64,000 nucleotides of DNA from Vulcanimicrobiota bacterium (GTDB taxonomy: Bacteria > Vulcanimicrobiota > Vulcanimicrobiia > Eremiobacterales > Eremiobacteraceae), in assembly GCA_963764965.1 (NCBI GenBank), contig CAVXUM010000006.1, forward strand, positions 27,131 to 91,130, in the 5' to 3' direction. The translations under genes were made by a program, and so were the position numbers. Below the pieces are notes generated by a model. The model searched no databases. It saw only the letters and a list, made by a program, of their open reading frames with translations, and had not been told where the DNA came from. Positions 2,948-64,000 of the stretch are shown piece after piece (position 1 is the stretch's first letter; each line of letters starts with the position of its first letter).

Positions 2948-4177
2948 ACTTCGAGATCACCAAAGACCAGAAGGCGGTCCGCGAGATGGTCGCAGCGTTC
3001 GCGCAAAAAGAGATCGCACCGAACGCTTCACAATGGGATCAAGCGCGCACGTTCCCGGTCGACCTCTTCTCCCGGCTCGGTGAGCTTGGCATCATGGGGA
3101 TGTCGGTCTCAGAGCGCTACGGTGGGGCTGCGCTCGACACCGTCAGCACGGTGCTCGCGATCGAGGAGATCTCAGCGAGCGGACGCCGGCGTGGGCGTCA
3201 CGGTCTCCGTCCACGCTGGGCTGACGACGCGTATCATCGAGTCCTTCGCAAGCGAGGTCGCCAAGCAGCAATACCTCCCCCAGATGTGCACGGGGCGTTG
3301 GCTGGGCGCGTTCGCGCTGACCGAACCAGAATCGGGCTCGGATGCCTCCAACTTGCGTACCCGAGCTCGAGCGCGCGGCGATGCGTACGTCCTGGACGGC
3401 ACAAAGCAATGGGTCACCAACGGCGGCTACGCCAAAGTGTTCATCGTCTTCGCACGCACCGGTGGGCCGGGCCCTAAGGGCATCTCGGCGTTCGTCGTCG
3501 ACCGCGACACGCCGGGCGTGAGCATCGGACGGCTGACGGACAAACTTGGCATCCATTCATCCAATACGGTGGATGTGAGCTTCGCCGACGCCGAGATCCC
3601 GTCGACGCACCTGCTCGGCGAAGAAGGCGCGGGCTACAAGATAGCGCTTGCTTCGCTTGGAACCGGCCGGCTCGGCATCGCGGCGCAAGCGGTCGGCATA
3701 CTGGCGGCGTGTCTGGACACCTCGGCGAGATACGCGCGCGACCGGCATCAATTCGGGCGCGCCATCGGCTCGTTTCAGGCCGTCTCGTTCAAGATCGCCG
3801 ACATGGCGGTCGATCTCGATGCGGCTCGCTTGCTGCTGTATCGGGCCGCCTGGATGCGCGATCAGGGCTTGTCCGAGATCGACGCTTCGTCGAAAGCGAA
3901 GCTGTTCGCGTCGACCGCCGCACGCAAGCATGCCGCAGAATGCGTGCAGATACTCGGGGGCTACGGCTACACGACCGAGTTCCCCGCGGAGCGCTACTAC
4001 CGCGACGCGAAGATCACCGAGATCTACGAAGGCACTTCAGAGGTGCAGCGCATCGTGATCGCGCGCGAGATCCTCGGCAGGCTGGAAGAGCGCGACACGT
4101 CCGGCCGGCCGCAGCGCGGCGGGTCGGGGCGCAATGGAGCGAGGATCTCACGCGAGCGCGCGCCGAGGCACGACTAA
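2944..4177 (+). CDS. Acyl-CoA dehydrogenase (butyryl-CoA dehydrogenase-like), interrupted by a 1-nt frameshift near 3190
   Basis: [27 protein letters not shown]-terminus continues in another frame as ...[11 protein letters not shown]...[19 protein letters not shown]. The ATG overlaps the hbd stop (ATGA). Confidence 0.8.
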
Positions 4178-16922: not shown

Positions 16923-18358
16923 CTTCGTCCCTGCAACGGGTGGTGGCCAAGGTTCTCGGTGTCGCATTCGGCTTGAGCCTCACGGTCGGTCTCCACGCGG
17001 CCGCTTCGGCGTCCGCGAGCGACGACGTCGGCCGCTCCATGCTCGATTACTCGTTCGAACGAGCCTCAGCCGAGTTCTACAAGAAGACGACCGACCAAGT
17101 GCTGCTCGACGGTGCGGTGAGCGGGATGCGGACCGTCGTCAAGGGACACGGCGGCGATCCCAACAAGGTGCCGACCTTGCACGCCGCGGGCAGCGACAGC
17201 GCCGACATCGCCGCGCTCAACCACGAGCTCTTCGTGGTCGAGCACGATTACGGCCAAACGGTAGGCGGCCGCAACATCGCCTACGCGGCCATCGACGGCA
17301 TGATGCAGGCGTTGCACGACCGTTGGACGGTCTTCATGACGCCGAAGGAATACCGCAGCCTCAATGAAGGGCTCGACGGCGGCAACTTTGCCGGTGTCGG
17401 AATCGTCATCGATGTGGACGCGACCACCAAATCGCTCCTCGTCGTCCAGACCATCGACAGCGGGCCGGCGGAGAAGGCCGGACTGCAAGCCGGCGACGTC
17501 ATCCTCACGGTCGACGACAAGCCCACGCAGGGTCTGACGACCGAACAAGACAGCTCTCTCATCCGCGGCAAGGCAGGCACCACGGTGCAGCTCACCGTGC
17601 AGCGCGCCGGCGTGCCCAAGCCCATCGTCATGACCATCACGCGCGAGACGATCCACGCGCCCAGCGTCCGCGAGCGGGTGCTCGACGGCGACATCGGCTA
17701 CGTGCAGGTGTTGGTCTTCGGGCTCACCACCGGCCAAGAACTCGCCACTGCGATGCAAAAGCTCGACAAGCAGGGCGTGAAAGGCATCGTGCTCGACCTG
17801 CGCAACAACGGCGGCGGCTATCTCAACGCTGCGATCGACGTCTCGTCGCTCTTCGTGCCGGAAGGTCCGATCGTCTCGATCGACAGCCGCACAAAGCCGC
17901 TGACGACGTTCGACGCCGAGAACACCGCGGTCGCGCCGCGTCCGCTGGCGGTGCTCGTCAACGGTTTCACCGCGAGCGCCTCTGAGATCACGTCGGGCGC
18001 CATCCAGGACTCGGGCGCAGGCATCCTCATCGGCAGCCGGACCTTCGGCAAAGGCGTCGTGCAGACGATCTATCCGTTGCCCGACGGCAGCGCTATCAAG
18101 ATCACGACCGCACGATATCTGACGCCGAACGGACGAGACATCAACTCGGTCGGCATCGCGCCTGATATCGCCGTGGCCGACGTCAAACCGCCGGACTTCG
18201 GCAAGCCGGCGACCGACGAGCAACTGCAGCGCGCCCTGACCTACGTGCAGGACAAGATCGCCGCGGGCGACGCGCCGGCAGCTGCAAAGCCGACGAGCAT
18301 GCAGGTCACGCAGCCAGGCAACACCGCGGCCCAAACGCAGGGAACCAGCCCGCAGTAG
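16919..18358 (+). CDS. ctpA: C-terminal processing peptidase (S41, CtpA family), intact tandem paralogue
   Basis: 479 aa. PDZ plus S41 motifs (LDLRNNGGG, VLVNGFTASASEITSGA, TFGKGVVQT). Start overlaps the upstream ctpA stop (ATGA). Confidence 0.85.
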   Translation: MTSSLQRVVAKVLGVAFGLSLTVGLHAAASASASDDVGRSMLDYSFERASAEFYKKTTDQVLLDGAVSGMRTVVKGHGGDPNKVPTLHAAGSDSADIAALNHELFVVEHDYGQTVGGRNIAYAAIDGMMQALHDRWTVFMTPKEYRSLNEGLDGGNFAGVGIVIDVDATTKSLLVVQTIDSGPAEKAGLQAGDVILTVDDKPTQGLTTEQDSSLIRGKAGTTVQLTVQRAGVPKPIVMTITRETIHAPSVRERVLDGDIGYVQVLVFGLTTGQELATAMQKLDKQGVKGIVLDLRNNGGGYLNAAIDVSSLFVPEGPIVSIDSRTKPLTTFDAENTAVAPRPLAVLVNGFTASASEITSGAIQDSGAGILIGSRTFGKGVVQTIYPLPDGSAIKITTARYLTPNGRDINSVGIAPDIAVADVKPPDFGKPATDEQLQRALTYVQDKIAAGDAPAAAKPTSMQVTQPGNTAAQTQGTSPQ

Positions 18359-23314: not shown

Positions 23315-24469
23315 TTACTTGCCGAGCAGCTTGCGCGCGATGACGATGCGCTGGATCTGCTGCGTGCCCTCGTAGATCTGGGTGATCTTTGCGTCGCGCA
23401 TCATGCGCTCCACCGGATACTCCGTCATGTATCCGTAGCCGCCCAGCAGCTGCACCGCATCGGTGGTCACCTTCATCGCGACGTCACCGCACTTGAGCTT
23501 GCAGAGCGCTCCCCAGTAGGTGACGTCATCCGCGCCCAGGTCGCATTTGTGCGCCGCCTCGTAGAGCAACAGGCGCGCCGCTTGCGTCTCGACGTCCATG
23601 TCGGCGATCATCCATTGCAGGCCTTGCTGCTTGGCCAAAGGCTTGCCGAAGGCGACGCGTTCTTGAAGGTATCTGGCTGCGAAGTCGAGCGCCCCTTGCG
23701 CGATCCCCAGCGCCTGCGCAGCGACGCCCGGGCGCGACTTGTCGAGAGTCGCCATGGCGATCTTGAACCCCTGGCCCTCGGCTCCTAGCAGACGGTCGGC
23801 GGGGATGCGGCAATTGTCGAGGATGACCTCGTTGGTCGGCGACCCACGGATGCCCATCTTGTGCTCGACCTTGCCGAGCTTGAAACCAGGATCGTCCTTG
23901 TGGCAGATGAAGGCCGAGACGCCTTTCGGGCCTGCTGAAGCATCGGTCATGGCAAAGACGATGCAGACGTCGGCGACGGCGACATTGGTGATGAAGACCT
24001 TGGTGCCGTTCAAGACGTACCGATCGCCGTCACGGACCGCGGTCGTGCGCATGTTGGCCGCGTCCGAGCCCGATGTCGGCTCGGTCAGCGCATAGGACGT
24101 CATCCACTCGCCAGTCGCGAACTTGGGCAGATACCGTTTCTTCTGTTCGTCGCTGCCTGCGATCATGATGGGCAGCGCGCCGAGCTCTTGCACGGCGATG
24201 ATGAGCGCGCTGGTGGCGCACGCTTTGGAGACCTCTTCGACGACCTTGACGTAGGTCAGGAAGCTGCCGAGGCCGCCATATTCCTCAGGGAAGGGGATGC
24301 CCAACAAATCGTTCTTCGCGAAGAGCTCGCGAACATCGTCGGGATATTCGCCGGTCGCGTCGATGGCCGCAGCTCGTGGCGCGACCTTCTCTTGCACGAG
24401 CTTGCGCACCGTGTCGAGGACCATCTTTTCAGCTTCGATCGCTTCAACGCTGCGCTCGGGTGCCAACAT
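23315..24469 (-). CDS. Acyl-CoA dehydrogenase
   Basis: Intact 384-aa acyl-CoA dehydrogenase (YEGTQQIQRIVIARKLL). Confidence 0.85.
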   Translation of the reverse strand: MLAPERSVEAIEAEKMVLDTVRKLVQEKVAPRAAAIDATGEYPDDVRELFAKNDLLGIPFPEEYGGLGSFLTYVKVVEEVSKACATSALIIAVQELGALPIMIAGSDEQKKRYLPKFATGEWMTSYALTEPTSGSDAANMRTTAVRDGDRYVLNGTKVFITNVAVADVCIVFAMTDASAGPKGVSAFICHKDDPGFKLGKVEHKMGIRGSPTNEVILDNCRIPADRLLGAEGQGFKIAMATLDKSRPGVAAQALGIAQGALDFAARYLQERVAFGKPLAKQQGLQWMIADMDVETQAARLLLYEAAHKCDLGADDVTYWGALCKLKCGDVAMKVTTDAVQLLGGYGYMTEYPVERMMRDAKITQIYEGTQQIQRIVIARKLLGK

Positions 24470-49506: not shown

Positions 49507-52179
<2,673 letters not shown>

Positions 52180-52186
52180 AAAAAAA

Positions 52187-52209
52187 GACTTGTGCCCGGG
52201 CATTGTGGG
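52187..52209 (+). repeat. Terminal inverted repeat, left copy
   Basis: GACTTGTGCCCGGGCATTGTGGG, preceded by A9. Confidence 0.6.
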
Positions 52210-52663
52210 ACAGCGAGCCCCGAGCCGAGATTCTGAAGCGCGGTTCAAACGTCCGGTATGCGCCTGACGGCCATTCGCAAGCGCGCCGAGGCTACGCGCG
52301 AATGCCTTTTGGGCGGGGATATGCGAACGCTTGATTATCGTTCGCGATCACTCGCTTTGCGCACGAACGTCCGGTATCTATTACATCGCCCGCAATTTGT
52401 GAAATTGGCGACTGAGCAAAGAGCTTAGCGACTATTTGCTTGCTACGTGTAAATCTTTTTGCCACAAAGCGTCACCCGAACGTCAGTGCGAGTCGCCAGC
52501 ACGTACGACCCAATGGAAGTTTTGTGTCGCCCCGTAACGGGCATGGTGGACTTGAATCGGCTGGAACAGGAGCCTTTTCGTCAACCTTGTTCCGGTCAAT
52601 CGGCTCAAATAGACTAGAACCCACCTGGTTTCGCCATTGGCACTTTTCGGAAGGAGTAGAGTT

Positions 52664-54431
52664 ATGCGCGAATTTACAGGGCGGCCATTAGTCGCAGTGC
52701 TAGCTGTTGTTCTTCTCTCCCTAGCGCCCGCGAGCGCCCTTGCGCGCGGCGGCGCGTTCTTGTGGCATGTCGAAAAGCTCCAGAACGGTGCTGCCGTAGG
52801 GATCGCGAAGGGCCGCGTTGTTTCCATGCACGTGGTTCATCCCAAATCTCTTGCAAGGCAGACTCCCAGCGTCAGCCGAGGCGAAATCGGCAACATTCCG
52901 TTTAGGCCTCGCTTGAATACCCAAACCTATGCGGCTTTGAAAGCCGCCGCATCTCACAACCTCCATGCTCCGAGGATGCTTAACACCTACTCGCTGCTGT
53001 CATCTGCGGCCGCGGCGGGGGGGGCCTCCCATTCAACTCGTAACGGGCCTAACCGACGGCCGCCATGTTTGCGGGTACTTCGGCACCGGCTGTCAACCGC
53101 CGGACATGGCAGTCGCGGCGTCCTCGAACTGGCTTGTGCAGGCTACCAACACAGCGGTAGCGGTCTACGATAACAATGGCGTCATGGTACTCGGGTTTCC
53201 AATCGACTTCCCCACGTTCTTTGGCGTCCCTAGCCCTGGACTATGCACATTCAATCCGAGTGGTATCCCGTTCACTTCCGACCCACGGGCTTTCTACGAT
53301 CCCAATGATAAGCGATTCTTCATCGCGATGGAGGCTTTCAATGGAGTCGCCGACGCGTGCCCGTTCTCGTCTACCGCGTACATTGCCGTAAGTCAAACGA
53401 GCGACCCGACCGGTGCGTGGAATATTTACAGCGTGGATTCCGCCCTGGCTAGCGCCACTGACTTCGACGACTATACGGAACTTGGCTTTGACAGCCAGGC
53501 CGTTTATATTGGTGGCAATCAGTTTCCGTGTTGCGCAGCTGGGTTCGGCGGCGCTTGGACGATCATACTTGATAAGCATGGCATGGAGAATGGGACCGCC
53601 ATCGCTGCGCCAAATGTCATCGGCCCATATCTCTCTTCGTCCAGTCCAACGTGCCCGGGCGGCGGCTGCTTACTCGATACGGTCAACCCGACAACGTCGG
53701 TGGCCAACCTCGCTCAGCAACCGGGAGCGACAATATTGACGTCTGCTGACCAATCGAGCCCAACCTTTGCCTGCGGTTTTGGCGTCACGTGTAATAACAT
53801 CGATGTGTGGGGAATATCGAATCCGCTTGGCGCAACTCCGGTGGTTTCGATGCAGACAGTGACGTTGCCGACGTCCTTCGTGCTGCCTCCCAACGGCGAT
53901 GAGCCCGGGCGTCCAGGATCGATTGAAACGATCGACAATCGCATCTCGGGAACGCCCACGTATACTCCGAAGGGCGGGGGTCGCGTGTCTTTTGCTCTCG
54001 AGACCGGCGTTGCGTTCGGCACAGCGACGTTTCCGGGCTTCATATGGGGCATGATCGCGATTAAGGAGGCCGGTGGTAAGCTTACCAGCGCGACCCTAGC
54101 CGAGAGTGGCGTCGTTGCCGCTGCCAACATGACCAACTCGTTCGCGGTCACGCAGCAGACCCCGCAAGGAGCTCTCTTCGTTGCGAGCGACGTGATGAGC
54201 CTATCAACGTATCCCGGCTGGGTGTATCGCCTCCAGCGTGGGGGTGTTCCGGCCGGGAAGCTCGGAGCGCCCACGCTCGTCCAAAGGGGTCTTGATATCT
54301 TCGGTGGATCGCGTTGGGGTGACTACGAGGCAGCCTCCTACGACGGGTTCTCATCGAACAACGTGTGGCTCGCGTCCCAGTATGGAAACACCAACTACGA
54401 CTGGGGCACATCTATGGCCAAAGTACACTAG
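52664..54431 (+). CDS. Secreted hypothetical protein (~590 aa), one frameshift near 53000
   Basis: RBS AGGAGT and signal peptide MREFTGRPLVAVLAVVLLSLAPASALA. Cys-containing, Gly/Ser/Thr-rich, beta-rich sequence (…RWGDYEAASYDGFSSNNVWLASQYG…). No confident family assignment. Confidence 0.5.
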
Positions 54432-54455
54432 CTATACAGCGACGACAACGAATGC

Positions 54456-54488
54456 GGGGCTACCGTGAGGTGGCCCCGTTTTTTTTTT
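54456..54488 (+). terminator. Rho-independent terminator (GGGGCTACC-gtga-GGTGGCCCC followed by T10)
   Basis: 9-bp stem with one mismatch, then a T10 run 25 nt after the stop codon. Confidence 0.65.
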
Positions 54489-54629
54489 GAGCGCGAGCCG
54501 GCCAATCAATTCAACGCCATGCACTAACGTGGGTACTCCAAGTGGCCGGAGCCCCAAGTTCATGCCACGTCTCGGTTGTTAAATTCGCGCTTTTCGACGC
54601 TCTTCGCTCTCCTGATCGGGTGTGCTATA

Positions 54630-54740
54630 TAGAATTTGCGAAACTCTGGCGTACGTTGTAGGTGCGCGTGCCCTGCAGCCCGGGCACGGGCACCTGCAAC
54701 ACTCCCCAGACTTGCGCAAATTTCTATATCGCACTCCAAC
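54630..54740. repeat. ~110-bp imperfect palindrome (GCTATATAGAATTTGCGAAACTCTGG ... CCAGACTTGCGCAAATTTCTATATCGC with an internal GTTGTAGGTG...CACCTGCAAC)
   Basis: The two arms are near reverse complements of each other. Lies between the two cargo ORFs, next to the transposase remnant. Confidence 0.4.
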
Positions 54741-54890
54741 CCCTGGGTGAACGCCGTGCTCGCGAGATGCCTGGGCTACGCTACTGCCGGCGTCAATCTC
54801 TCGCAATACCTGAAGCTTGAATTCCTTATCAAAGGACCGGTTGTGGGGGGGTTGGCATGGGTTGCTCCTTTCTTGGAGAAACCCTGACTT
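54720..54890 (-). pseudogene. Remnant of an IS3-family transposase OrfA (HTH_Tnp_1) N-terminus
   Basis: Minus-strand translation ...RSFDKEFKLQVLREIDAGSSVAQASREHGVHPGV... follows the IS3/IS911 OrfA pattern (xEFKxxxVxxxxxGxSVAxxARExGIHPNTL). It is truncated and runs into the palindrome. Confidence 0.35.
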
Positions 54891-54957
54891 AACTCGTTGT
54901 TGCAACCCCGTGCGCATTACAACCGTTCGCACTAATCTAAGAATGCGGTGAAACAAC

Positions 54958-56799
54958 ATGGCACCCCTAGTTCAATTTCTCGCTGGACTCATCGCATGTT
55001 GTTTGACGTTTTCGCTAGCAAGCGCCAAAGCCGGATTGCCGGGAATTCCCGGCGTTCCCGTTCCTCCGATCCCTAACGTGCCGAAACTCCCGACCCTTCC
55101 GTTCCCCGATGTCTCGCAGCTCCTCTCCGGTCAAGACGCCGTCAGCACGAGTCTCGCTAACGCTGTAACGGGCATCCCGTTTTTGAACGATTATCAGCCG
55201 TTCATCGTTGCTCCCCTTGAAGCTGGCTCGCGAGGTGCCGGTGGCGGTTTCGACGTACCCGCTGGTTCGTATGTGTTCGAGGCGAGAAGTTATTGCTTGC
55301 ATGCCGGCAAGTATTTTGCTGTAGGAGGCAGCGGGTATCTTTACGCGCCGCTGAAGGGATCGAAGGCGCAGATCATTCGGACTATCCTAGAGCGATCTGC
55401 AGTTCATCTTGAGGTTCCTCAGCACGACGTTCAGCTGCTCATCTGGGCGATTCTTGCTCGAGTGAGAACAAGCGACTTATCGCCACAACTGCAGGCTGAC
55501 GCCGCAAAGCTTTTGCTGCCGTCTCAAATCTTGTTGCTCAACAGTTCGGCGATCGGCGTTGTGCCAGAAGGTCAATTCGGCACTTTGTTAGCGAAGATAC
55601 CCGATTCGCTTCAACCGGTGGTGCAAACCGAGAACTCAATGCGTGGATTACTTGCCTCAAACGCAACATATGAAGCAATGGAGCGAGTCGCCGTTCCGCA
55701 ATCGCCGCAACACAGGACGACTCTCTCGCCGGTTCGATGGTCGTTCGCGCCACAAGGGTATTTTGTCTGGTACATCCCCCACGGGTTTTCATGGACGACA
55801 ACCTTTGTGGACGTACCAGGCGCCGTTCTCATGACTCAAGACTCGCTGGGCCGTGTTACGCTCTTGAAAGATCGACAAGGAGACAGCGTGATCATTTCCT
55901 ACGTTGACTCCAGCTCCGGAGCACGCGTCGCAGGGGATTCTCAGGTCGAGTTCTATCGAATCCGCTCATTGCGGTTCGCGTGGCAGCAGACAAAAGGCGG
56001 TAAAACAAGCTTACAAAGTCAAACGTGGCCGGCAAACGAGTGGGTCTTGGTCGGAGTACCTAACGGAAAGGGTCGGGTCTCGTCACGCGTGGGTTCGACA
56101 AGCGGGCAAGAATTATACAATAGCGCAGGTTCGCTCCGCGATCAATTTCTCAATCTGCTGCGGACCGTTCATGGCGATTCTCAAACACTCCCGTCTTTGG
56201 TCGCGCTGGGCGAGCTGCGGGGAGCAATGCAGTCAATATCAAGCGGTCAACAGGTTCGCTCAGCGGCTATCCATCGGGAACTGAGTTTTCCGTTCGCTGC
56301 GTGGGAGTCAGCGTTCGCCCGTTCGGTGGGAGGCCGCACCGCCGCACTCGTTGATGCGGGCATTGATCCTCCTATTAATCTGTCGGATGGGGTCGGGCAG
56401 CCGCAAGATCCTGGGGCTCAGCGGCTCGCACAGTCGCCTGTCTGTCAAGAACTTCCTCCGGGACCGGGTAATAATGCGCAACAAATAATTTCAAAAGGTC
56501 TGTCCGACGGCGGATACCCCCATGCGGGTTCAAATCCGCAGTTCATCAGCTACCAAGAAATCGGAAACACGGTGTATTGGCACATTGATCTAAATAGTTC
56601 ATTCGACCCGATATCTCCCTGCACGCCGGGAACTCCGCCCTATAGTTTTTACGGCGGAGTCCACCGCGACGGAGACAATTTCGGTGCGTCGTCCGGTCTC
56701 ATGCACAATGGGCAAACGATTGGTAAAGGCACGGGGTCGGCGCCCGAAAAATGCGCCTCATGCGCGATTGGAGAATCCTTGAGACCGATTCACTATTAG
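54958..56799 (+). CDS. Secreted hypothetical protein (613 aa, intact)
   Basis: Signal peptide MAPLVQFLAGLIACCLTFSLASA, a Pro-rich N-terminal segment (GLPGIPGVPVPPIPNVPKLPTLPFP), and a Cys pair near the C-terminus (EKCASCAIGE). No recognisable family. Confidence 0.55.
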   Translation: MAPLVQFLAGLIACCLTFSLASAKAGLPGIPGVPVPPIPNVPKLPTLPFPDVSQLLSGQDAVSTSLANAVTGIPFLNDYQPFIVAPLEAGSRGAGGGFDVPAGSYVFEARSYCLHAGKYFAVGGSGYLYAPLKGSKAQIIRTILERSAVHLEVPQHDVQLLIWAILARVRTSDLSPQLQADAAKLLLPSQILLLNSSAIGVVPEGQFGTLLAKIPDSLQPVVQTENSMRGLLASNATYEAMERVAVPQSPQHRTTLSPVRWSFAPQGYFVWYIPHGFSWTTTFVDVPGAVLMTQDSLGRVTLLKDRQGDSVIISYVDSSSGARVAGDSQVEFYRIRSLRFAWQQTKGGKTSLQSQTWPANEWVLVGVPNGKGRVSSRVGSTSGQELYNSAGSLRDQFLNLLRTVHGDSQTLPSLVALGELRGAMQSISSGQQVRSAAIHRELSFPFAAWESAFARSVGGRTAALVDAGIDPPINLSDGVGQPQDPGAQRLAQSPVCQELPPGPGNNAQQIISKGLSDGGYPHAGSNPQFISYQEIGNTVYWHIDLNSSFDPISPCTPGTPPYSFYGGVHRDGDNFGASSGLMHNGQTIGKGTGSAPEKCASCAIGESLRPIHY

Positions 56800-57167
56800 C
56801 AAATCCGGTTAAGAAGCGAAAAATGGATTAGTCATACAATGATGAGCCGAATATTTTTTGCGATAATTGACCGAGCACCGGACGTTTGCGCGCGTTTGCA
56901 ACCGTTTTGCAGATGAGTCGATAGCAATGGATTCAGTGCCGCCAAAGCCCGCAAAAAAAGGCCCTGGTTCCACGCTCGAATACCAGACTTTTCTGTGCTT
57001 CCAGCAATCTCGCCACGGAACATCGATTGTTTGCGTATTGCTCAGGCCCTGAGCGTCGGGTCATTTATCCAGTCTACCGGATGTTGGGGATCGACGCACC
57101 GGACGTTTGCGAATGGCGTTCAAGCGCAGACCAGATGTTTACGAGCGACGCGCTTCAGGATCGCTGT

Positions 57168-57190
57168 CCCAGAATGGCCGGGCACAAGTC
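57168..57190 (-). repeat. Terminal inverted repeat, right copy
   Basis: The reverse complement GACTTGTGCCCGGCCATTCTGGG matches IR-L at 21/23 positions; followed by T5. Confidence 0.6.
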
Positions 57191-57494
57191 TTTTTGAGTA
57201 GCCGCCTGAAACACATCAAGTCCACCGCACGTCCCGAAGTAGAGAACCGAAGCCGTAGACCAATACAATCGATCCTGTTCAATCCCGCTGGTTCGACACC
57301 CAATTGCATTGATTATTGGATGAATTCATAGGCTTGAACCCGGTCGTTTTTGCGGGCTTTTGCGGCCAATCCGTCGTTAATCTAATGTCCACCGAACTCA
57401 CTCAGTTTCAAGTTAGTGACCATCGCAGATCTTCCAACATTTCCGCTCCCGGATGTATCTTATACGATAGATGCTCTCGGGGAGCGAAGTCTTA

Positions 57495-58034
57495 ATGTCG
57501 GGGAATGAAGAGAAACTCGATCGGATAGCGGCAGCCGCGATGGCGGGCGAAGCGCCCGCGTTGAGTTCGCTAATGGCTCGCAGTTGGGACTTAGCTTTTC
57601 GCTTGGCTGCACGGATGCTTGGCGATCGTCAAGCCGCGCAGGATGTGGCCCAGACCGCGTGCGAGCGCGTCTTACGATCCCTCCGGTTCTTGAGATCCGC
57701 GAAAGCGTATAGCCCCTGGTTTTATTCCATCGTTACGCGGATCGCACTCCGCGAGCGTATGACGCTCGCACGACGGGCTAGTATCGAGCCTTGCGATCGT
57801 CCCGCTATCGTAGATCCAACGGATTCCGTTGCTATTAACGAGGCGATAGATCGCCTTAAATCCGAGCTAAAAGACGTCGTCGTGCTCTTTTACGGGTGCG
57901 ATCTCAGCACTGATGTTATCGCTCGCAGTTTAAACGTGCCCAACGGAACGGTCCGTTATCGGCTGCATGAAGCGCGCAAACAGCTCCGAGAAATGCTCGA
58001 GAGCACCATTGACCAGGAAAGCGTAGGATTGTAA
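57495..58034 (+). CDS. ECF (sigma-70 family, group 4) RNA polymerase sigma factor
   Basis: Region 2 (DVAQTACERVLRSLRF...PWFYSIVTRIALRE) and a region 4 HTH (LKDVVVLFYGCDLSTDVIARSLNVPNGTVRYRLHEARKQL). RBS GGGGAG. The ORF track starts at 57471. Confidence 0.75.
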   Translation: MSGNEEKLDRIAAAAMAGEAPALSSLMARSWDLAFRLAARMLGDRQAAQDVAQTACERVLRSLRFLRSAKAYSPWFYSIVTRIALRERMTLARRASIEPCDRPAIVDPTDSVAINEAIDRLKSELKDVVVLFYGCDLSTDVIARSLNVPNGTVRYRLHEARKQLREMLESTIDQESVGL

Positions 58035-58037
58035 GCA

Positions 58038-58701
58038 ATGAACGAATTTGATCAACGCATTCGTGATGCGGTGCGCGGCTCGCTTGCCGCTTATGAGGTG
58101 CCATCGCATCCGCAATTCGTACCCGAGTCTACATCAATTCACCACGGTCAAAGTAAAAGATGGGTTGTGGCGGTCGCCGCAACAGTTTGTCTAGCCTTCG
58201 TAGCGGCTGCGTCAACAGGACACATCGCTGTCGCACAACTCGAAAACACCGTTACGCAAATACTTCGATTCTTCGAAATCGATGCGCGCGGCCGGCAGTA
58301 TCCGCTAGAGACACAATCCTTGAGCTTGACCGAAGCATTGCAGACGCAAGCCTTTCATGTCATAGCACCGGCAGGGACTTCCGGACGGCACAGCGTTGCG
58401 GTCGATTCAAAGACTAGGCTCTGGCAATGCAACGACGCTGATATTTGCCTTCGATCGCGACGGGAGGCAGTTCTCGATCGTTGAGACGCCTTCAAGTTCG
58501 CAAACCATGCCAACTATTGGTTACTCGCTCGCGCCGTCCTTTCCTCACCCAAACGATCGTAGACCGCAGCCTCATGGCCACTATTTCAAGGTTCAAGCAG
58601 TCGAATGGGTAGCAGGATCCGCGCACGTGGCCCTGTTTGCCGCAACTGCATTGACGTCAGATGAGGTTATAGGCATCGAACGCGCGATGAGTCATCTGTG
58701 A
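58038..58701 (+). CDS. Putative membrane-anchored anti-sigma factor, one frameshift near 58420
   Basis: Immediately downstream of the ECF sigma gene. Short cytoplasmic N-terminus, a single TM (WVVAVAATVCLAFVAAAS), and a periplasmic C-domain continuing in a second frame. Confidence 0.4.
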
Positions 58702-59054
58702 AGATGCGAGCGTATGGTCGGCCGAGCCCTAGGTTATGGCACATTTCGACGCCCGGTCGAGGAGCCAATAACAATTGTCGCATTGGTTCCTGGTCTCACC
58801 AAGAATTCACCCTTTCCAGCCGCCGAGTTCCAACCGTGACTGTAGGAGATCGATAGGATGATTAGGGTGGCCATTAAGAATACGAACCAGTTCCGTCCAA
58901 CCGCACGCGCGAATAGGCCTAACGACGACAGCTCGGTTTCAGGCTCCACAGCTTTTCGATGCTGGCAGGCGGAAATGCGCCCTGACGTCCGGTTCTAGTG
59001 ACAATAACTTACCTCAATTCCAAACGTCCGGTGACTTCGTAAACGTTCGGCGAC

Positions 59055-60029
59055 CTATCGGGTGTTGTCGATCTCGCTTCGGCCGATCATGTAGCAAAAG
59101 CCGATAGATACCGAGCGAGGATACGACCGCGTTGTGGACGCCACACCGCCCTCGGGTTCGGTGTAATCGCTGGCCAGCGTTTGTCCGCCGTATTGCGCCG
59201 TCAGCAGCCATTGACGAGCGAGCGTTTGCGCGAAGTTCAACGTGATAGGCGTCGTGTTCGGTGAGAAGTTGTGCTGGACGAACAAGCCGATCAGCGTTCC
59301 ACCGCGCGAGCGCCACGTCGGGATGATCTGCGGCGTGAAGCTCCAGCCTCGCTGGACCCCAGACGCTGTCGTGCTTACCACTGCGTTGATGAACGGTAGG
59401 GTGACGGCGATGCCATATGGACTTCCAGGCCGGACTGGCATGCTTGCGAGCGGCATCAGCGTATAGGAAGGGCCGGCTGCTGTGAGCGATTGTGAGCCGG
59501 TCTGCGCCTGATACGACGCGGAGAAGCTAGCCAACGCGAGTGAGCGATTGTTGTAGTAAACTTCCTGTTTGTAGCCAAATGCCATGTCCGTCGCGCCAGC
59601 GACCGTGACGTCTTGTATGGTGGTGCTCTGCTCAAAGGTAGGTAAGGTAACCGATACTTGCGATCGCCTCGTGACCCCGATGACGACGAGACCGTTTGGA
59701 TAATAGAACGACCGGCCGGATCCAGTCGTCGTCTCGATTTGACCATTGAAGGTCACCTGCGAATACGAGGTTGTGTTCGTTGCTCCGTAGTTGGCTTGAA
59801 GCATAGCCTGACCCAATACGAACACACATGGTCCGCCGGCGAGGTATTTCTTGACGAGCTCGAGCGATCCGCCGCAGGGGTCGAAATACCCCGACGGCCA
59901 CACCGCAGGGCTTGGCGTAGGTGAAGGTGTTGGATTAACGGTGTCTGCGACCGCCGCGCACGGCGCGAGCAAAGCCAGGGCGACGCCCGCAATCAGCGCA
60001 CCGGATCTCATCAAGGGACGCGATCCCAC
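59055..60029 (-). CDS. Secreted beta-rich hypothetical protein (possible outer-membrane protein)
   Basis: Signal peptide ...ALALLAPCAAVA-DT and a Pro/Thr linker. 324 aa, intact. Alternating hydrophobic beta-strand pattern. Confidence 0.4.
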   Translation of the reverse strand: MGSRPLMRSGALIAGVALALLAPCAAVADTVNPTPSPTPSPAVWPSGYFDPCGGSLELVKKYLAGGPCVFVLGQAMLQANYGATNTTSYSQVTFNGQIETTTGSGRSFYYPNGLVVIGVTRRSQVSVTLPTFEQSTTIQDVTVAGATDMAFGYKQEVYYNNRSLALASFSASYQAQTGSQSLTAAGPSYTLMPLASMPVRPGSPYGIAVTLPFINAVVSTTASGVQRGWSFTPQIIPTWRSRGGTLIGLFVQHNFSPNTTPITLNFAQTLARQWLLTAQYGGQTLASDYTEPEGGVASTTRSYPRSVSIGFCYMIGRSEIDNTR

Positions 60030-61423
60030 CCGACATCGCGCCCAAGTTCGCGCGCAGCGCGATACGCTGCACGCCCGATGACGCCGGCATACGTGGGAAA
60101 CGAAAGCGGAATCCGAGCGATCACTTCTACCGTCATCTTCGCGGTCATCGCGACTGCGACCAACTGCACGATGTCCACTGCGCGCTCGCCGACGATGTGA
60201 CAGCCTAGGATTTGTCCGGTCTGCCGGTCGACGACGAGCTTACAAAAGCCGACGGTGCGGCCGTCGATAATCGTGCGCGTCGTCGAATCAAATGGTATTT
60301 TCACGATGAGGGCATCGTGCGCCTCACGGGCTTTCGCCTCCGTGAGACCGACCTGCGCATACTCGGGATCAGTAAAGCTGCCGATCGGTGCCGCCTCGTT
60401 TCCGGCGCTCATGGTCGGGCCGCGTACGGCATTGCTCCCCGCGACGTAACCTTCTTGAATGGCCTGCGGTACCAACATCGCTCTGCCATTGACGTCGCCC
60501 GCGGCGAAGATGTTCGGAACGTTGGTGCGCAGATATTCGTCCACGTGCACGCAGCCTCGCGCTTCTGTCGTGACGCCCGCAGCCGCGAGATCTAGTCCGG
60601 CCGCATCAACGACCCATCCGACCGCGACAACTGTAAGCGCAGCCTCGGCGGATTCGCGGGTGCCTTCCTTTACATACGTCATGCGTACGCCACGCGCGCT
60701 TTTCTCAAATCGTTCGATTTGGCCAAAGCTTTCGCGTATCTCGATGCCTGACTCACGGAATGCGGCCGTGACGGCCGCCGAAACATCTTCATCTTCTGTC
60801 GGGATGATTCGCGCGGCTGCTTGGAAGAGCTGTATGCGCGATCCAAGCGCGTTGAAGATTGAAGCGACTTGCGCGCCTGTCGCGCCCGCGCCGATGACTA
60901 GCATTGATTCAGGAACGGATTTGAGCGCAAGCGCATCACCAGGGGTGGCAGTCAGCTCAAACCCCGGAAGGTCGAGCTTTCGACTCACGCCTCCCGTGCA
61001 AATGATGATCTTTCCGGCTTGAAGCTTCGTTCCATCTGCCGCTAAGACAGTCTGCGAATCGAGAAATCGAACGGTGCCGGCTCGTTCGTACAACGTCACA
61101 CCCAGACGGTCGACGTCGTCGCGCCACGCCGAGTGCGTGCGTACCTCGGCGATGATGCGATTCACGCGTTCGAGCAACTGCGCGTAGTCAAGTTTCGGCA
61201 CACCGACGGCGATGCCGTATTCAGGCAGTTGACGCGCCTCACGCATGAGGCGCGCCGCATGAGCGAGCGTCCTCACAGGGACGGGCCCATCGTTAGCGGC
61301 CATGCCGCCAAATCCGCCCGACGTGATGAGCGCGGTTCTCGCGCCGAGATCACCGGCTCGCATCGCCGCGTTCACGCCTGCAGGGCCTGCGCCGATGACA
61401 ACAACGTCGAACACCGTTGTCAC
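60011..61423 (-). CDS. FAD/NAD(P)-binding pyridine nucleotide-disulfide oxidoreductase family protein (Lpd/MerA-like fold) lacking the redox-active CXXXXC motif
   Basis: Intact 470 aa. FAD motif VVVIGAGPAG, NAD motif LVIGAGATGAQ, and a C-terminal dimerisation domain. The position of the disulfide motif reads GGFGGMAANDGPVPVRTL, with no Cys. Confidence 0.7.
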   Translation of the reverse strand: MTTVFDVVVIGAGPAGVNAAMRAGDLGARTALITSGGFGGMAANDGPVPVRTLAHAARLMREARQLPEYGIAVGVPKLDYAQLLERVNRIIAEVRTHSAWRDDVDRLGVTLYERAGTVRFLDSQTVLAADGTKLQAGKIIICTGGVSRKLDLPGFELTATPGDALALKSVPESMLVIGAGATGAQVASIFNALGSRIQLFQAAARIIPTEDEDVSAAVTAAFRESGIEIRESFGQIERFEKSARGVRMTYVKEGTRESAEAALTVVAVGWVVDAAGLDLAAAGVTTEARGCVHVDEYLRTNVPNIFAAGDVNGRAMLVPQAIQEGYVAGSNAVRGPTMSAGNEAAPIGSFTDPEYAQVGLTEAKAREAHDALIVKIPFDSTTRTIIDGRTVGFCKLVVDRQTGQILGCHIVGERAVDIVQLVAVAMTAKMTVEVIARIPLSFPTYAGVIGRAAYRAARELGRDVGWDRVP

Positions 61424-61425
61424 GC

Positions 61426-62748
61426 CTACGATGTGAGAGCAGCCAGCCAGCGCAGCGCAGAAAGGCTCGGCATGAAGCAGTATTCGCCGCCCCGCGTTGT
61501 GACGAAGCGAGGTAAGCCCTGCATGCGCCGGCGGACGGGCCTGCGTGGAATCGTGAAGACGCCTCCGCCCTCGTTCACGCCGCTGATCGGGTCTTGCTCG
61601 TCCGAGACGCCGAAGAACACGCTATCGTTGATCCACTGCGACTGGACAAACTCGAATTGGCGCTTCAAGTGCGAACCGATGAAGGCGAACATGATGCCGC
61701 GGTCGGCGCCATCGTCCTCAAGCACGCCGTCGGGCAACGGCGGGCCATATGCAGTGCCTCGTCTCAGCATGCGGTGGAGCCGCACGAAGCCGGCGATGTT
61801 CGCGTCGCGCGGATTTGAGCGACGCATGTGCGAGCAAGGCGGAGTCTTGAACCCGATGTCGTCGTCGGCGAACGAGAAGTTGTTATTGCGCGACGGATCC
61901 GCACCAAGTTGCGGATCGTCATGCTCCGGCGCGAGCGCTAGCGGAGCGCCGCTGCGCCAGCGCCCCATCATTTTCGCGGCCAGTAGCTCTTCTTGCGCGT
62001 CGTGTTCTGAGTTGGTGCGCAGGTATTGGCGGAACGCCGCCACGCGCTCGTGCAGCTTGCGAAAGACCGCGTAGGTGCCGTTGCGTCCTAGCACGTCGGG
62101 CTGCGGCATCGGTGGAAACCCGCCCATTTCGTCGCGATAGCCGAGAATGAACTCGCCTGCCTTTAGCGGCGTCTCACGCGGATTGGAACCCGGGATGCCC
62201 GTGCCCTCGATCGCGGGATGACTGATGCCGTCGCGATAGCCGAAGTGCTCCTTTTCGGTCGGGAGGGCGTAGCAGTCCTGACGCCACAGCGCCGTGATCC
62301 CAGGAAACGTCTGGTGTGCCTCGCGCACGCGCGTGAGCTCTTGCTCGAGTTGTTCTTTCTTCGGAGCGATCGCGGTGAAGATGACGTGGCAGTCCGGTGT
62401 ACCGAGCGGTTTTTCCCAATGCTGCGGCGCGCTCTCCCCAGTGTCGCCCAGCACGTGCGCACGCGCAGCCATGCCGTGCACGAATTCAGGCGGAAAGCTC
62501 TCGAGGGAAGCCTGTGGTACTCCCAGCGCCTCGAGTCCTGCATACGTCAGCGACACGCTCGCCCACACATCGCCGCGCGGGCTATGCGGATGAGCGACCG
62601 ACGCGACCGCGGTGCCGGCGCGCCGCATCAACTCGCGTCCGGCCGCCTTGTCATCAATGCGTATGATGATGTAGGTAGCGGCAAAGGGAGTTGGCCGCGA
62701 CCGGACGGCGCCGCTTTGGATGTCGTCGAGCTGGAGCGGCTCGCTCAC
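61426..62748 (-). CDS. Dyp-type (dye-decolourising) peroxidase
   Basis: Intact 440 aa. DyP signature region (FGYRDGISHP, IGSHLKRQFEFVQSQW). Confidence 0.75.
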   Translation of the reverse strand: MSEPLQLDDIQSGAVRSRPTPFAATYIIIRIDDKAAGRELMRRAGTAVASVAHPHSPRGDVWASVSLTYAGLEALGVPQASLESFPPEFVHGMAARAHVLGDTGESAPQHWEKPLGTPDCHVIFTAIAPKKEQLEQELTRVREAHQTFPGITALWRQDCYALPTEKEHFGYRDGISHPAIEGTGIPGSNPRETPLKAGEFILGYRDEMGGFPPMPQPDVLGRNGTYAVFRKLHERVAAFRQYLRTNSEHDAQEELLAAKMMGRWRSGAPLALAPEHDDPQLGADPSRNNNFSFADDDIGFKTPPCSHMRRSNPRDANIAGFVRLHRMLRRGTAYGPPLPDGVLEDDGADRGIMFAFIGSHLKRQFEFVQSQWINDSVFFGVSDEQDPISGVNEGGGVFTIPRRPVRRRMQGLPRFVTTRGGEYCFMPSLSALRWLAALTS

Positions 62749-63767
62749 TTGGCGGCGATGTTCTTCCAGAAGCGCTCGAGGCTCTCGTCGCCGCCGAAAA
62801 GTGTGGTGAAGATGGTCGAGTCGGCCAGCATGATGTCTCCCGCCCGGTCACCGCTCGGCGGCATCCACAAGAACATGTTGAACTCTTTGTCACCCGCTTG
62901 CGTGAATGGATGCGGCCTTGAGAGGTCGACTGGTTGCTTCGCGAGCAAGTGGATCGATTTCGTGTCGTCGGTCGTGAGCGCATAATGGGGCAGATGCGGG
63001 TGGAAGTTGAACGTGGCGACCCCCTCGAGAAACCCGCGCCGATCGAGGTCCCGAAATGTGGTGAGCGGCGCAATTTGGTTCTTCGTGCCCTCAACGGTCG
63101 CCGGTCGAAGGCCCCAGCGGTTCTCGACCGGCACTCCCAGCGCTTTCATCAACGATCTCGTGTAGCGGCCGAAACGTTGCTGCCTTGGAACGAGCGCGTC
63201 GCGGTGATGACGGTATTCCATCTGACGCTGCTGCATGTCGCTGGAGCTACCGACGTCGTGATGCGGGCTCAAGACGAGCGTCGTCCCTTCGCGCTTTAGC
63301 CAATTGCGAATGGCCTCGATCTCCTCGGGCGACGCTGCTTGTTCGGTTACCAGATGGTCGAGTCCGAACACCATGAGCGTGTCGGTATCGGCCAAGATAC
63401 GCTCATCGATCGGCAATTTCTGCCCGGCTTGATCGATGCGCTGGTAGTCGATGACCGGCTGCCCGGTAGCCTCGCCGACAACTTGCTGGAACCGGACGAT
63501 TGAAAGATGGAACAGCTCGAGCGTTCCAGCTATGCCCTGCAGGAACATCTGCTCCGAATACTCCGGCGTCTCGTACGAGGGCCAGGCGACTCGGCGCACT
63601 TCCGTCATTGTCGAAAAGCGATTGTCAAGCTCGGTGACATCGCGATTCGATTCCCAGGGATAGCTCCAGGTCCAGTAGACGCTGAAGCGCCGTTGACCTA
63701 TCTTATACGGACGCGGCACGTTGAGTTGATTGTACGTGCGCGGCGACCAGATCGCACCGTTCGGCAT
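62745..63767 (-). CDS. Hypothetical protein, first gene of the DyP operon
   Basis: Intact 340-aa ORF whose stop overlaps the DyP start. No confident family assignment. Confidence 0.4.
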   Translation of the reverse strand: MPNGAIWSPRTYNQLNVPRPYKIGQRRFSVYWTWSYPWESNRDVTELDNRFSTMTEVRRVAWPSYETPEYSEQMFLQGIAGTLELFHLSIVRFQQVVGEATGQPVIDYQRIDQAGQKLPIDERILADTDTLMVFGLDHLVTEQAASPEEIEAIRNWLKREGTTLVLSPHHDVGSSSDMQQRQMEYRHHRDALVPRQQRFGRYTRSLMKALGVPVENRWGLRPATVEGTKNQIAPLTTFRDLDRRGFLEGVATFNFHPHLPHYALTTDDTKSIHLLAKQPVDLSRPHPFTQAGDKEFNMFLWMPPSGDRAGDIMLADSTIFTTLFGGDESLERFWKNIAAK

Positions 63768-63774
63768 GCTGCGC

Positions 63775-63960
63775 CTATTGCATCTGGTCGAGCATCTCGG
63801 AAAGCGCCTGCTTCACTCTCAGCGCTTTCTTAATCTCATCGGCGGTGACGTACGGAACCTCTGCGTACTCCAAGAAGCTTGGATGGTGATGTTCGCGCAC
63901 CCACTTCACGAATGCTTGTGGATTCGTCTTCCAATCCTCCGGGAAGCCCTCGAGATTCAT
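63775..63960 (-). CDS. Small hypothetical ORF at the window edge
   Basis: 61-aa ORF (MNLEGFPEDWKTNPQAFVKWVREHHHPSFLEYAEV...). The start lies 40 nt from the window end; the true N-terminus may be outside the window. Confidence 0.25.
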   Translation of the reverse strand: MNLEGFPEDWKTNPQAFVKWVREHHHPSFLEYAEVPYVTADEIKKALRVKQALSEMLDQMQ

Positions 63961-64000
63961 GAACGAGGTTGTTATTCCGGACTGACTGAAGAGCGCGACC

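Follow-up and report, generated by a model that had tools for sequence, protein, structure and literature searches.

Arm-type sites are known from lambda (P1/P2 and P'1-P'3) and from L5, and the common core of lambda measures 15 bp. Casposons, which rely on a Cas1-type integrase, carry terminal inverted repeats and make a long target duplication, which in Methanosarcina mazei is 14 bp long with an AT-rich 3' part (PMC4779613). They target the 3'-distal part of conserved genes (aEF-2, tRNA) and are found as tandem arrays and solitary ends at one target (PMC4779613). Unusually long direct repeats of 15-17 bp have also been described in the ISTde1 subgroup of the IS1202 family (bioRxiv 10.1101/2022.12.17.520857).

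The 11-mer AAACGTCCGGT recurs near one end of a 64-kb stretch of DNA (the window, meaning the whole stretch analysed). It is predicted to be bound by a protein in the subterminal parts of small, non-autonomous mobile islands whose target, in a single clade of Eremiobacterota (uncultured soil bacteria), is the stop codon of secA; to this tentative explanation we give slightly less than an even chance.

The secA island of the window

The 5.0-kb segment at 52180-57195 is a genuine insertion that begins directly 3' of the secA stop codon. Its borders consist of the following features.

52166..52179, plus strand: direct repeat 1, the last 14 bases of secA including the TAA stop, GAGTAGCCGCCTAA (repeat search)
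52180..52283, plus strand: left terminal inverted repeat, modular (repeat search, alignment of ends)
52182-52199: left tip, an A-run plus AAAAAGACTTGTGCCCGG
52196-52216: left block A, CCGGGCATTGTGGGACAGCGA
52229-52242: left block B, GATTCTGAAGCGCG
57104..57195, minus strand: right terminal inverted repeat (repeat search, alignment of ends), with block B at 57149-57162, block A at 57161-57181 and the tip at 57178-57195
57196..57209, plus strand: direct repeat 2, GAGTAGCCGCCTGA (repeat search)

The 14-bp direct repeat, which abuts both island tips, differs between its two copies by a single base (TAA versus TGA) and was recovered by the repeat search as family D16 (52166-52181 / 57196-57211, 94%). 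Direct repeat 1 is a target-site duplication or an att core. The terminal inverted repeats are confined to the island's two ends and are imperfect over ~100 bp (52182-52283 versus 57195-57104, 73% over 106 bp), with 94% identity in the outer 35 bp. Inward of block B, the left repeat continues into the first motif copy and a shared stretch, CCATTCGCAA. GC content drops at the island from ~0.63 to ~0.55 and remains low to about 60 kb.

The genes within and beside the island are listed below.

52665..54431, plus strand: cargo gene 1, secreted hypothetical protein (ORF list; profile searches)
54579..54959, minus strand: ORF with an IS3-type OrfA remnant, helix-turn-helix only (PF01527 HTH_Tnp_1, residues 40-74 only)
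54958..56799, plus strand: cargo gene 2, 613-aa secreted hypothetical protein from a family of hypothetical proteins (ORF list)
57471-58034, plus strand: ECF sigma factor (ORF list; profile search)
58038-58701, plus strand: putative anti-sigma gene, frame broken once (ORF list; profile search)

Cargo gene 1 matched no Pfam family and no PADLOC family. A single break, probably a sequencing indel, interrupts its reading frame (ORFs 52637-53173 and 52965-54431), and the gene is followed by a terminator-like hairpin at 54454-54479. The minus-strand ORF overlaps a 120-bp near-palindrome (54619-54737); as its PF01527 match is limited to the residues given above, it was rejected as a working transposase and regarded as island debris. 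An independent short-read contig has the genes in identical order and at identical spacing as far as the sigma gene. The sigma and anti-sigma genes (57471..58701) lie outside the inverted-repeat-bounded island, between two motif groups that both point away from them.

Motif copies in the window

Four exact matches to the 11-mer occur in the window against 0.01 expected (100 shuffles), and the recurrent motif noticed in a sequence-only reading is thus real, including its degenerate copies at 57076, 58983 and 59041. When degenerate copies are included there are 10 motif sites, every one within 52.2-59.1 kb, and the five occurrences of the 9-mer AACGTCCGG are likewise limited to this interval.

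52247..52257, plus strand: motif copy L1, exact AAACGTCCGGT (exact-match search)
52365..52375, plus strand: motif copy L2, GAACGTCCGGT, 1 mismatch (mismatch search; aligns with the right-end copy at 56982)
56877..57140, minus strand: right-end motif array, five copies pointing inward (exact and mismatch searches, alignment of ends); exact AAACGTCCGGT at 56877-56887 and 57098-57108, degenerate copies at 57130 (AAACATCTGGT), 57076 (CAACATCCGGT) and 56982 (AAAAGTCTGGT)
58983..59051, plus strand: third motif group; exact AAACGTCCGGT at 59022-59032, TGACGTCCGGT at 58983 and AAACGTTCGGC at 59041

The sites listed in the sequence-only reading exist, with one of them displaced by a base (56876-56886 for 56877-56887) and the one at 52365-52375 carrying a mismatch; copies 57130 and 56982, which align with the two left-end copies, had been missed. 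The orientations were correctly given as plus at the left end, minus at the right end and plus at 59 kb. Direct repeats said to lie 9-19 bp apart roughly agree with measured gaps of 8-28 bp (19, 22, 32 and 39 bp from start to start of neighbouring copies). The claimed absence from 52 kb of housekeeping sequence was borne out, with zero copies at <=1 mismatch in bases 1-52000, and the window scan found such copies outside 52.2-59.1 kb only at 62305 and 63491.

The 59-kb group points right, to where the minus-strand gene 59055-60029 has its 3' end. Neither a partner group nor a nearby tip, block A or secA-tail copy was found, and we take the group to be one end of another cargo unit, now solitary or decayed.

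The sequence-only reading had offered binding by the neighbouring ECF sigma factor (57471-58034) as an alternative. The sigma and anti-sigma genes adjoin the island, and the AAC and CGTC of the motif resemble ECF -35 and -10 words. A role as a promoter element of this kind is now largely refuted and extremely improbable. ECF promoters typically separate their -35 and -10 elements by 16-17 bp. In the motif, AAC and CGTC overlap inside a single 11-mer, leaving no paired -35/-10 element, and the AAC-to-CGT spacer between neighbouring copies would be 18-22 nt. The region upstream of the sigma operon (57210-57470) holds no co-oriented copy, only a degenerate one in the wrong orientation (57339-). 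The majority of motif groups sit 3' of the nearest genes or converge with them and aim into gene 3' ends, and the motif is present in relatives (L001, L106, L107 and L108) that have no ECF sigma gene in or near their islands.

Islands at secA in related genomes

The same secA site is occupied by different islands in related Eremiobacterota genomes. Inverted tips together with a nearby second copy of the genome's own secA tail were found in four relatives, the copy being direct in three and inverted in one. The islands of L001, L089 and L102 (4.8, 1.84 and 0.37 kb) have inverted tips and are flanked by a direct copy of their own lineage-specific secA tail; the copy in L108 is perfect, 17 bp long and inverted. 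Direct-repeat length appears to vary across genomes, from about 12 to 17-21 bp. Tip and block A adjoin the secA stop in L001, L089, L102, L103 and L105-L108, and in L104 and L114 the site is unoccupied with tip, block A and motif all absent.

Homology between the window and L001 (80%, equal to that of the flanking core genes) spans the tip, block A and block B, and the alignment ends at the first motif copy (window 52249 = L001 11453). The left end of the island looks vertically inherited. Cargo at 96% identity, differing in order and genomic context, is present in L001 and L088/L085, and cargo proteins are unrelated from island to island.

The variable DNA downstream of secA in the clade (29.7 kb) contains 16 exact motif copies and 28 at <=1 mismatch, as against 0 and 4 in 218 kb of other clade DNA; the sequence behind this confinement to islands amounts to about 250 kb. 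The window, L001, L106, L107 and L108 contain the motif, with the first copy always 59-70 bp from the secA stop; in the closer relatives L102, L103, L105 and L089 it has decayed or is missing. Such a patchy distribution is typical of mobile DNA. The motif is not required for the tip and repeat structure as such, since the L089 and L102 islands have tips and direct repeats without it.

Motif copies share one direction inside a group, and the two groups on either side of a cargo segment are inverted relative to each other. These groups face inward around cargo irrespective of gene orientation. Three further related genomes show this arrangement around other cargo segments. Sites are spread out at one side and tightly packed at the other.

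Window: 52247+ and 52365+, facing 56877- to 57130-
L001, first segment: 11452+, 11577+ and 11622+, facing 12514-, 12670- and 12691-
L001, second segment: 13585+ and 13608+, facing 14449- and 14469-
L108: five plus copies, three genes, then five minus copies, four of which are about 20 bp apart

No tip, secA-tail copy or short target duplication was found at the interior motif groups of L001 and L108, and we infer only from their symmetry that they are element ends.

Among 35 sites compared, from genomes whose SecA C-termini are down to 68% identical, information is limited to the 11-mer, which implies selection by a conserved binding protein. Such conservation would also suit the operator of a conventional transcription regulator for accessory secreted-protein genes, the inverted layout being a by-product of duplicated ends, and a compact 11-bp site is appropriate for a helix-turn-helix regulator. 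Several groups are indeed upstream of and co-oriented with cargo genes (including L001 13585/13608 and window 52247/52365), and two copies precede a start codon by 37 nt (L001 12514-) and 41 nt (L108 1358-). However, groups that lie 3' of the nearest genes or converge with them are at least as numerous (window 56877-57140 and 58983-59051; L001 11452-11622 and 14449/14469; L108 1576-2317), and each bracketed segment has one group per side whichever way its genes run. The unrelated cargo of different islands, the lack of exact copies in the 218 kb of other DNA and the homologues of the 613-aa cargo protein at five other loci, where no flanking motif was found, also argue against an operator, as does the finding that no regulator gene co-occurs with the motif. 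We consider this reading distinctly unlikely.

Still less probable is that the copies are inert leftovers of one ancestral repeat-bearing end that was duplicated by rearrangement, with nothing binding them today. Many copies are degenerate, the motif has decayed in L102, L103, L105 and L089, and no enzyme was found, all of which would fit. Against this, the 11-mer is exact in many copies with randomised flanks at a SecA C-terminal identity of only 68-88%, and neutral leftovers would have decayed together with their flanks.

Possible mode of movement

Because inward-facing motif groups recur at the ends of secA-stop islands, the motif looks like a candidate docking site of a DNA-moving enzyme, not a promoter. 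In the proposed mechanism, a hypothetical recombinase encoded elsewhere in the genome would bind several motif copies per end and pair the ends. It would cut the secA tail with a stagger of about 14 bp and insert the element, thereby restoring the frame and stop codon of secA. Insertion that recurred at one target, then decay and recombination between inverted ends, could give rise to arrays, to the interior motif groups of relatives and to the solitary 59-kb group. About 9 islands (roughly 45 kb) yielded no gene for a transposase, an integrase or Cas1.

Alternatively, the same islands may be integrative elements served by a tyrosine integrase from elsewhere in the genome, with the secA-tail repeat as common att core. 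The motif copies would then be arm-type sites to which the N-terminal domain of the integrase or an excisionase binds to build the recombination complex. The classic mark of integrase att sites is a 12-17-bp direct repeat at a conserved gene's 3' end that restores reading frame and stop, and the differing repeat length is easier to reconcile with an att identity block than with a fixed stagger. The compact ~11-bp sites have no extended conservation and occur in pairs as far as about 320 bp from the core, with one orientation inside each arm and the opposite one in the other arm. Inverted tip-repeat-tip junctions in L089, L102, L088 and L108 resemble attP-like joints between tandem elements. 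The repeat ends in TAA on the secA side and in TGA or TAG on the distal side in three of four genomes, as would fit if the element supplies a new stop. However, the distal repeat matches each genome's own fast-diverging secA tail, which target duplication explains directly and an element-borne core does not. Near-perfect terminal inverted repeats of 18-35 bp are foreign to lambda-type att sites, and no integrase gene lies within or beside any island. We regard integrase-driven movement as rather unlikely and lean toward a duplication-generating transposase (casposase-like or long-stagger DDE).

Comparison with known systems

The subterminal repeats had been likened to those of Tn7 and Mu, and what stands is the arrangement that characterises multi-site transposon ends or recombinase arms. 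Like Tn7-/Mu-like ends (TnsB/MuA sites), the islands have several site copies per end, direct within an end and inverted between ends, spread out at one end and close-packed ~20 bp apart at the other, and they pile up at one fixed position where a conserved housekeeping gene ends. Unlike them, the tips start with an A-run and not with 5'-TGT...ACA-3', the flanking repeat is 12-17 bp versus 5 bp, 11 bp are conserved per site versus about 22, the insertion site overlaps the stop codon versus a position about 25 bp downstream of it, and there are no tnsABCD or MuA/MuB genes. Membership in Tn7 or Mu is not supported, as TGT ends, a 5-bp duplication and tns genes are all absent. The ISTde1 subgroup is also unlike the islands, having 5'-TGT ends, a size of about 1.5 kb and its own DDE transposase.

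Unlike casposons, the islands have no Cas1 or PolB gene and comprise 0.4-5 kb of cargo only, and to our knowledge repeated subterminal motifs are not a described casposon feature. The inverted ends, long target repeat and location at the 3' end of a conserved gene are casposon-like, a resemblance that may serve only as a lead. From lambda-type elements the islands differ by their long near-perfect terminal inverted repeats, by a distal repeat that tracks the host secA tail and by having no tyrosine recombinase gene nearby. They share with lambda-type elements a direct-repeat core of ~15 bp at a gene 3' end, restoration of that gene end, multiple ~10-11-bp sites in both arms and tandem accretion at one att site, and some lambda-type elements likewise lack an integrase of their own.

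Motif copies and island structure in the window

The 11-bp motif AAACGTCCGGT occurs in four exact copies in the 64-kb window (0.01 in dinucleotide-preserving shuffles), and a window scan located further copies at one or two mismatches. The 9-mer AACGTCCGG is found five times, every one within 52.2-59.1 kb. The sequence-only reading had placed the motif to within one base and on the correct strands, and its visual impression that the 52 kb of housekeeping DNA is free of the motif was borne out, as the first 52 kb hold zero copies at ≤1 mismatch. The features referred to below are as follows.

49507-52179, secA, ending with the typical C-terminal zinc-finger motif
52166, GAGTAGCCGCCTAA, last 14 bases of secA, first copy of the direct repeat flanking the island
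52180-57195, island, the 5.0-kb segment that comes next after secA
52182-52283 and 57195-57104, imperfect terminal inverted repeats of the island
52247, plus strand, exact motif copy
52365, plus strand, motif copy with one or two mismatches
52637-54431, cargo gene 1
54619-54737, near-palindrome
56877 and 57098, minus strand, exact motif copies
56982, 57076 and 57130, minus strand, motif copies with one or two mismatches
57196, GAGTAGCCGCCTGA, second copy of the direct repeat
58038-58701, anti-sigma gene
58983 and 59041, plus strand, motif copies with one or two mismatches (59-kb group)
59022, plus strand, exact motif copy (59-kb group)

The terminal inverted repeats are 73% identical over 106 bp, with 94% identity in the outer 35 bp, and have no other occurrence within the window. 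From outside to inside, each end consists of an A-run and the tip AAAAAGACTTGTGCCCGG, block A CCGGSCATTSTGGGACAGCGA, block B ATYCTGAAGCGCG, and the first motif copy. GC content falls from about 0.63 to about 0.55 between 52.2 kb and about 60 kb. The island contains two genes for secreted proteins of no known family, a fragment of IS3 OrfA, and a 120-bp palindrome. No transposase or integrase was found in it by a Pfam scan of all sizeable ORFs, the sole match being the helix-turn-helix fragment of IS3 OrfA. Genes for an ECF sigma factor and an anti-sigma factor are not part of the island; they occupy the stretch that separates the right-end motif array from the 59-kb group. An independent short-read contig reproduces the gene order and spacing over the right junction, and the island structure is therefore not an assembly artefact. 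For the 59-kb group and the interior motif groups, neither termini nor target duplications could be demonstrated.

Other repeats were seen in the window. The near-palindrome of about 120 bp has 41-nt arms that are 80% complementary, nested inside 19-nt arms; it adjoins the IS3 OrfA remnant between the two cargo genes and could represent either a hairpin or a miniature inverted-repeat element. A 20-nt inverted repeat, GCCGCCAAAGCCCGCAAAAA at 56938-56957 and TTTTTGCGGGCTTTTGCGGC at 57347-57366 (95% complementary), has one arm within the island and the other outside, past the second direct repeat. A degenerate motif copy lies near each arm (56982 and 57339, both minus strand), and the pair is possibly left over from the end of an older element. 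The housekeeping part holds a direct pair (16357-16736 and 17767-18145, 72% over 385 bp) and an inverted pair (3940-4079 and 23320-23460, 79% over 142 bp), which are unrelated to the island and probably reflect paralogous genes.

The essential gene secA is split across three overlapping reading frames, and there is one frame break in cargo gene 1 and another in the anti-sigma gene. A split secA is also seen in the closest relatives, which are long-read (MFD) metagenome-assembled genomes (L103, L106), so the breaks were taken as homopolymer indel errors rather than pseudogenes.

The secA site in related genomes

The host was assigned to Eremiobacterota, and the regions downstream of secA were compared among relatives whose SecA C-termini are 68-88% identical. 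Two sites are unoccupied: in L104, secA is followed by 90 bp and then prfB, and in L114 a convergent gene lies immediately 3' of secA. Tip, block A, and motif are all absent at both. The site is occupied in L001, L089, L102, L103, L105, L106, L107, and L108, where tip and block A abut the TAA stop codon. The L001 sequence belongs to assembly GCA_019235715.1 and that of L108 to the MFD05705 genome. In L001 (island of 4.8 kb), L089 (1.84 kb), and L102 (0.37 kb), the far end could be followed to an inverted tip and then a direct second copy of the genome's own secA tail, a sequence that diverges strongly among these three genomes. By sequence, the islands bear all the marks of site-specific insertion.

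The apparent length of the flanking repeat varies: 14 bp in the window, 17 bp in L001, 17-21 bp in L089, and 12-14 bp in L102. Its decay parallels that of the tips, with one mismatch in the window, where the tips are 94% identical, and up to four in L102, where the tips are poor. A serious rival explanation is that the secA-tail repeat represents the att core of a tyrosine integrase and the motif copies its arm-type sites, which would account for the seemingly variable repeat length, for the compact 11-bp sites, and for the difference in stop codon (TAA versus TGA/TAG). This reading is opposed by the long terminal inverted repeats, atypical of such systems, and by the distal repeat, which matches each host's own secA tail. 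Since that repeat copies a rapidly evolving sequence of its own host and its decay tracks tip decay, we lean toward an enzyme of the duplication-generating type.

Joints made of an inverted tip, the repeat, and a tip are present in L089, L102, and L088, which suggests tandem insertions at one target. In L108, the interval 1485-1547 has two outward-facing tips and, inverted between them, 17 bp that match the secA tail perfectly; this palindromic tip-repeat-tip module is not a product of simple insertion and points to later inversion or template switching.

Individual loci differ in size and context. The 370-bp mini-island of L102 (1482-1852) has inverted CCGACCGGG tips and a 12-14-bp secA-tail repeat on both sides; its sole ORF encodes a small cysteine-rich secreted peptide, and a second relic resembling tip plus block A follows the distal repeat. 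L001 and L088/L085 have common cargo segments that are about 96% identical and differ in order, and those of L088/L085 lie away from secA. There, L001-type cargo sits between two inverted block A copies (L088 980-1078 and 5179-5300, also L085) with no secA in the context; RibD_C is found on one side, and the opposite side has DUF3800, Nramp, and a sigma-70-type factor. This cargo is enclosed by two copies of a 50-bp direct repeat, and each copy includes a T-run, some 16 nt similar to a secA tail, and an A-run with tip.

In L104, L102, L001, and L106, prfB comes next after secA, with or without an intervening short island. The 6.8 kb on the right-hand side of the window island (57210-64000) contain no prfB, and low GC persists there to about 60 kb; either the variable region exceeds the island bounded by the inverted repeats or the locus has been rearranged.

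Conservation and arrangement of the motif

Subterminal repeats similar to those of the window, sought in related elements as the sequence-only reading had proposed, were present as motif groups in the islands of L001/L088, L106, L107, and L108, with exact or near-exact copies; in L102, L103, L105, and L089, the motif is decayed or absent. The distance from the secA stop codon to the first motif copy is 59-70 bp in five genomes. Neighboring copies are usually 19-23 bp apart, and four of the five right-hand copies in L108 keep a spacing of about 20 bp. The 29.7 kb of variable DNA downstream of secA holds 16 exact copies and 28 at ≤1 mismatch, compared with none and four, respectively, in 218 kb of other DNA from the clade. 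The patchy occurrence of the motif among close relatives favors mobile DNA over a core regulon.

Homology between the window and L001 (80%, the level of neighboring core genes) spans tip, block A, and block B and ends at the first motif copy. Among 35 motif sites, information is limited to the 11-mer, apart from a weak preference for G after it. Were the copies inert leftovers, an exact 11-mer would not persist amid randomized flanks, and this explanation fares worse; conservation of the 11-mer across deep divergence argues instead for a living binding protein.

One candidate for such a protein, raised by the sequence-only reading, was the neighboring ECF sigma factor. ECF promoters are two-part, with a -35 (AAC) and a -10 (CGT) element about 16-17 bp apart, and lie upstream of and co-oriented with their targets, including the sigma operon. 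The motif did not conform to this: it is a single compact 11-mer, is wrongly oriented at most loci, has no co-oriented copy upstream of 57471, and occurs in genomes without an adjacent sigma gene, so that the promoter reading is contradicted.

Binding by another transcription factor would explain the motif groups found upstream of genes. As many groups lie downstream of genes or convergent with them, however, and an operator leaves these and the symmetry of the groups unexplained: copies are direct within a group, and groups point inward around cargo segments regardless of gene orientation. Cargo proteins are unrelated from island to island, and the motif is absent at loci carrying homologues of the window's 613-aa cargo protein, so the operator reading also fares worse.

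Inward-facing arrays of one compact site are the building plan of multi-site transposon ends, such as those of Tn7 and Mu, and of integrase arms, as in lambda and L5. As the cargo here is bracketed in the same manner, we read the motif, from anatomy and comparison, as the likely binding site of a recombinase whose gene would lie elsewhere in the genome. This putative enzyme would bind the motif arrays at the island ends.

Searches and rejected candidates

The core of the inverted repeat had no exact match among 185,579 species genomes, and BLAST of both island ends against plasmids and phages gave no match. A metagenome scan with block A returned 10 loci, half of which were discarded as chance matches inside coding sequences of unrelated organisms. 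Block A and motif matches in L004 likewise fell inside coding sequence and were attributed to chance. Viral contigs scanned for motif pairs yielded nothing but unrelated phage sequence of lower GC; one IMG/VR phage contig (L092, GC 0.34) has a tight cluster of motif-like CGGACGTT-type repeats at 3000-3090, taken as coincidental.

Cargo proteins matched neither defense-system models nor any Pfam family. Between 51.5 and 60.5 kb, Rfam gave no RNA family and a single sub-threshold match, and scans for sigma-70 promoters and terminators remained at background level. Several motif copies have a loosely conserved TG(N)GAT about 10 nt to their outside; 5-bp target duplications and TG...CA termini were sought beside the outermost copies, and no duplication was found.

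The tips were also considered as split halves of a secA terminator hairpin, which was rejected because the secA-tail repeat sits beyond the distal tip and no hairpin of this sort exists at the unoccupied sites of L104 and L114. Architecture was the ground for rejecting integron attC sites, Xer/dif modules, shufflons, IS200/IS605-type ends, and retroelement insertion.

Implications for Eremiobacterota

Eremiobacterota are abundant in soil but have hardly any cultured members, and to our knowledge their mobile DNA is essentially undescribed. A literature search turned up neither elements of this kind nor any account of secA as an insertion site. We regard as possible, though somewhat doubtful, an undescribed family of site-specific, cargo-carrying, non-autonomous Eremiobacterota islands that insert in the secA stop codon, duplicate about 14 bp of its tail as casposons do, and are driven by a putative clade-conserved recombinase, encoded elsewhere, which recognizes end arrays of AAACGTCCGGT.

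If so, the secA-prfB gap would be a dedicated landing pad for swapping small sets of secreted-protein genes, and the 11-bp motif would offer a direct way to reach the enzyme, through DNA-affinity capture or through co-occurrence among genomes. Given the long target duplication at a gene end, casposon-like or long-stagger integration chemistry would then be known from a further phylum, and from miniature cargo elements as well. Should the motif prove to be an operator instead, the system would be an ordinary regulon.

Comparison with known element families

The Tn7/Mu-style arrangement suggested by the sequence-only reading holds for the architecture and fails for family membership. As in Tn7-like elements, each end carries multiple copies of one site, direct within an end and inverted between ends, and insertion is site-specific by the 3' end of a conserved gene, here the secA stop codon in the window and eight relatives. 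The conserved unit is 11 bp rather than about 22 bp, the tips differ from 5'-TGT...ACA-3', and the flanking repeat is 14 bp (12-17 bp elsewhere) rather than a 5-bp duplication; no 5-bp repeat was found beside the TG-containing inner ends. Pfam scans of the window and related islands gave no tnsA, tnsB, or tnsC (plus tnsD or tniQ), only the IS3 OrfA fragment.

Casposons target the 3' end of a conserved gene, have inverted ends, and generate a 14-bp duplication; both tandem arrays and solitary ends are described for them (PMC4779613). The islands resemble them in their inverted repeats and perhaps in a long flanking repeat at the secA 3' end, whose apparent length varies and for which an att-core origin is possible. 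Neither a Cas1-type integrase nor the family B DNA polymerase that usually accompanies it was found in any island scanned. The ISTde1 subgroup of the IS1202 family generates direct repeats of 15-17 bp (bioRxiv 10.1101/2022.12.17.520857), and repeat length alone is compatible with it, whereas its 5'-TGT ends and its own DDE transposase have no counterpart here. As the islands have neither the enzyme nor the end sequence of either family, these likenesses are resemblances rather than memberships.

Lambda-type systems have a tyrosine integrase gene by the att site, and none lies in any island or within 10 kb. The layout itself, with a core at both junctions and arm-type sites in both arms, is compatible; the host-specific distal repeat and the long inverted ends are unlike this type.

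Pfam scans and precomputed Pfam lists of the related islands also contained no recombinase genes. The islands correspond to non-autonomous mobile elements, either MITE-like or integrase-less integrative, and judged from sequence the best label would be non-autonomous, site-specific mobile islands with multi-site ends, of a kind undescribed in the phylum: they combine defined ends and a target repeat with the lack of a recombinase gene, and have related copies at equivalent sites in other genomes.
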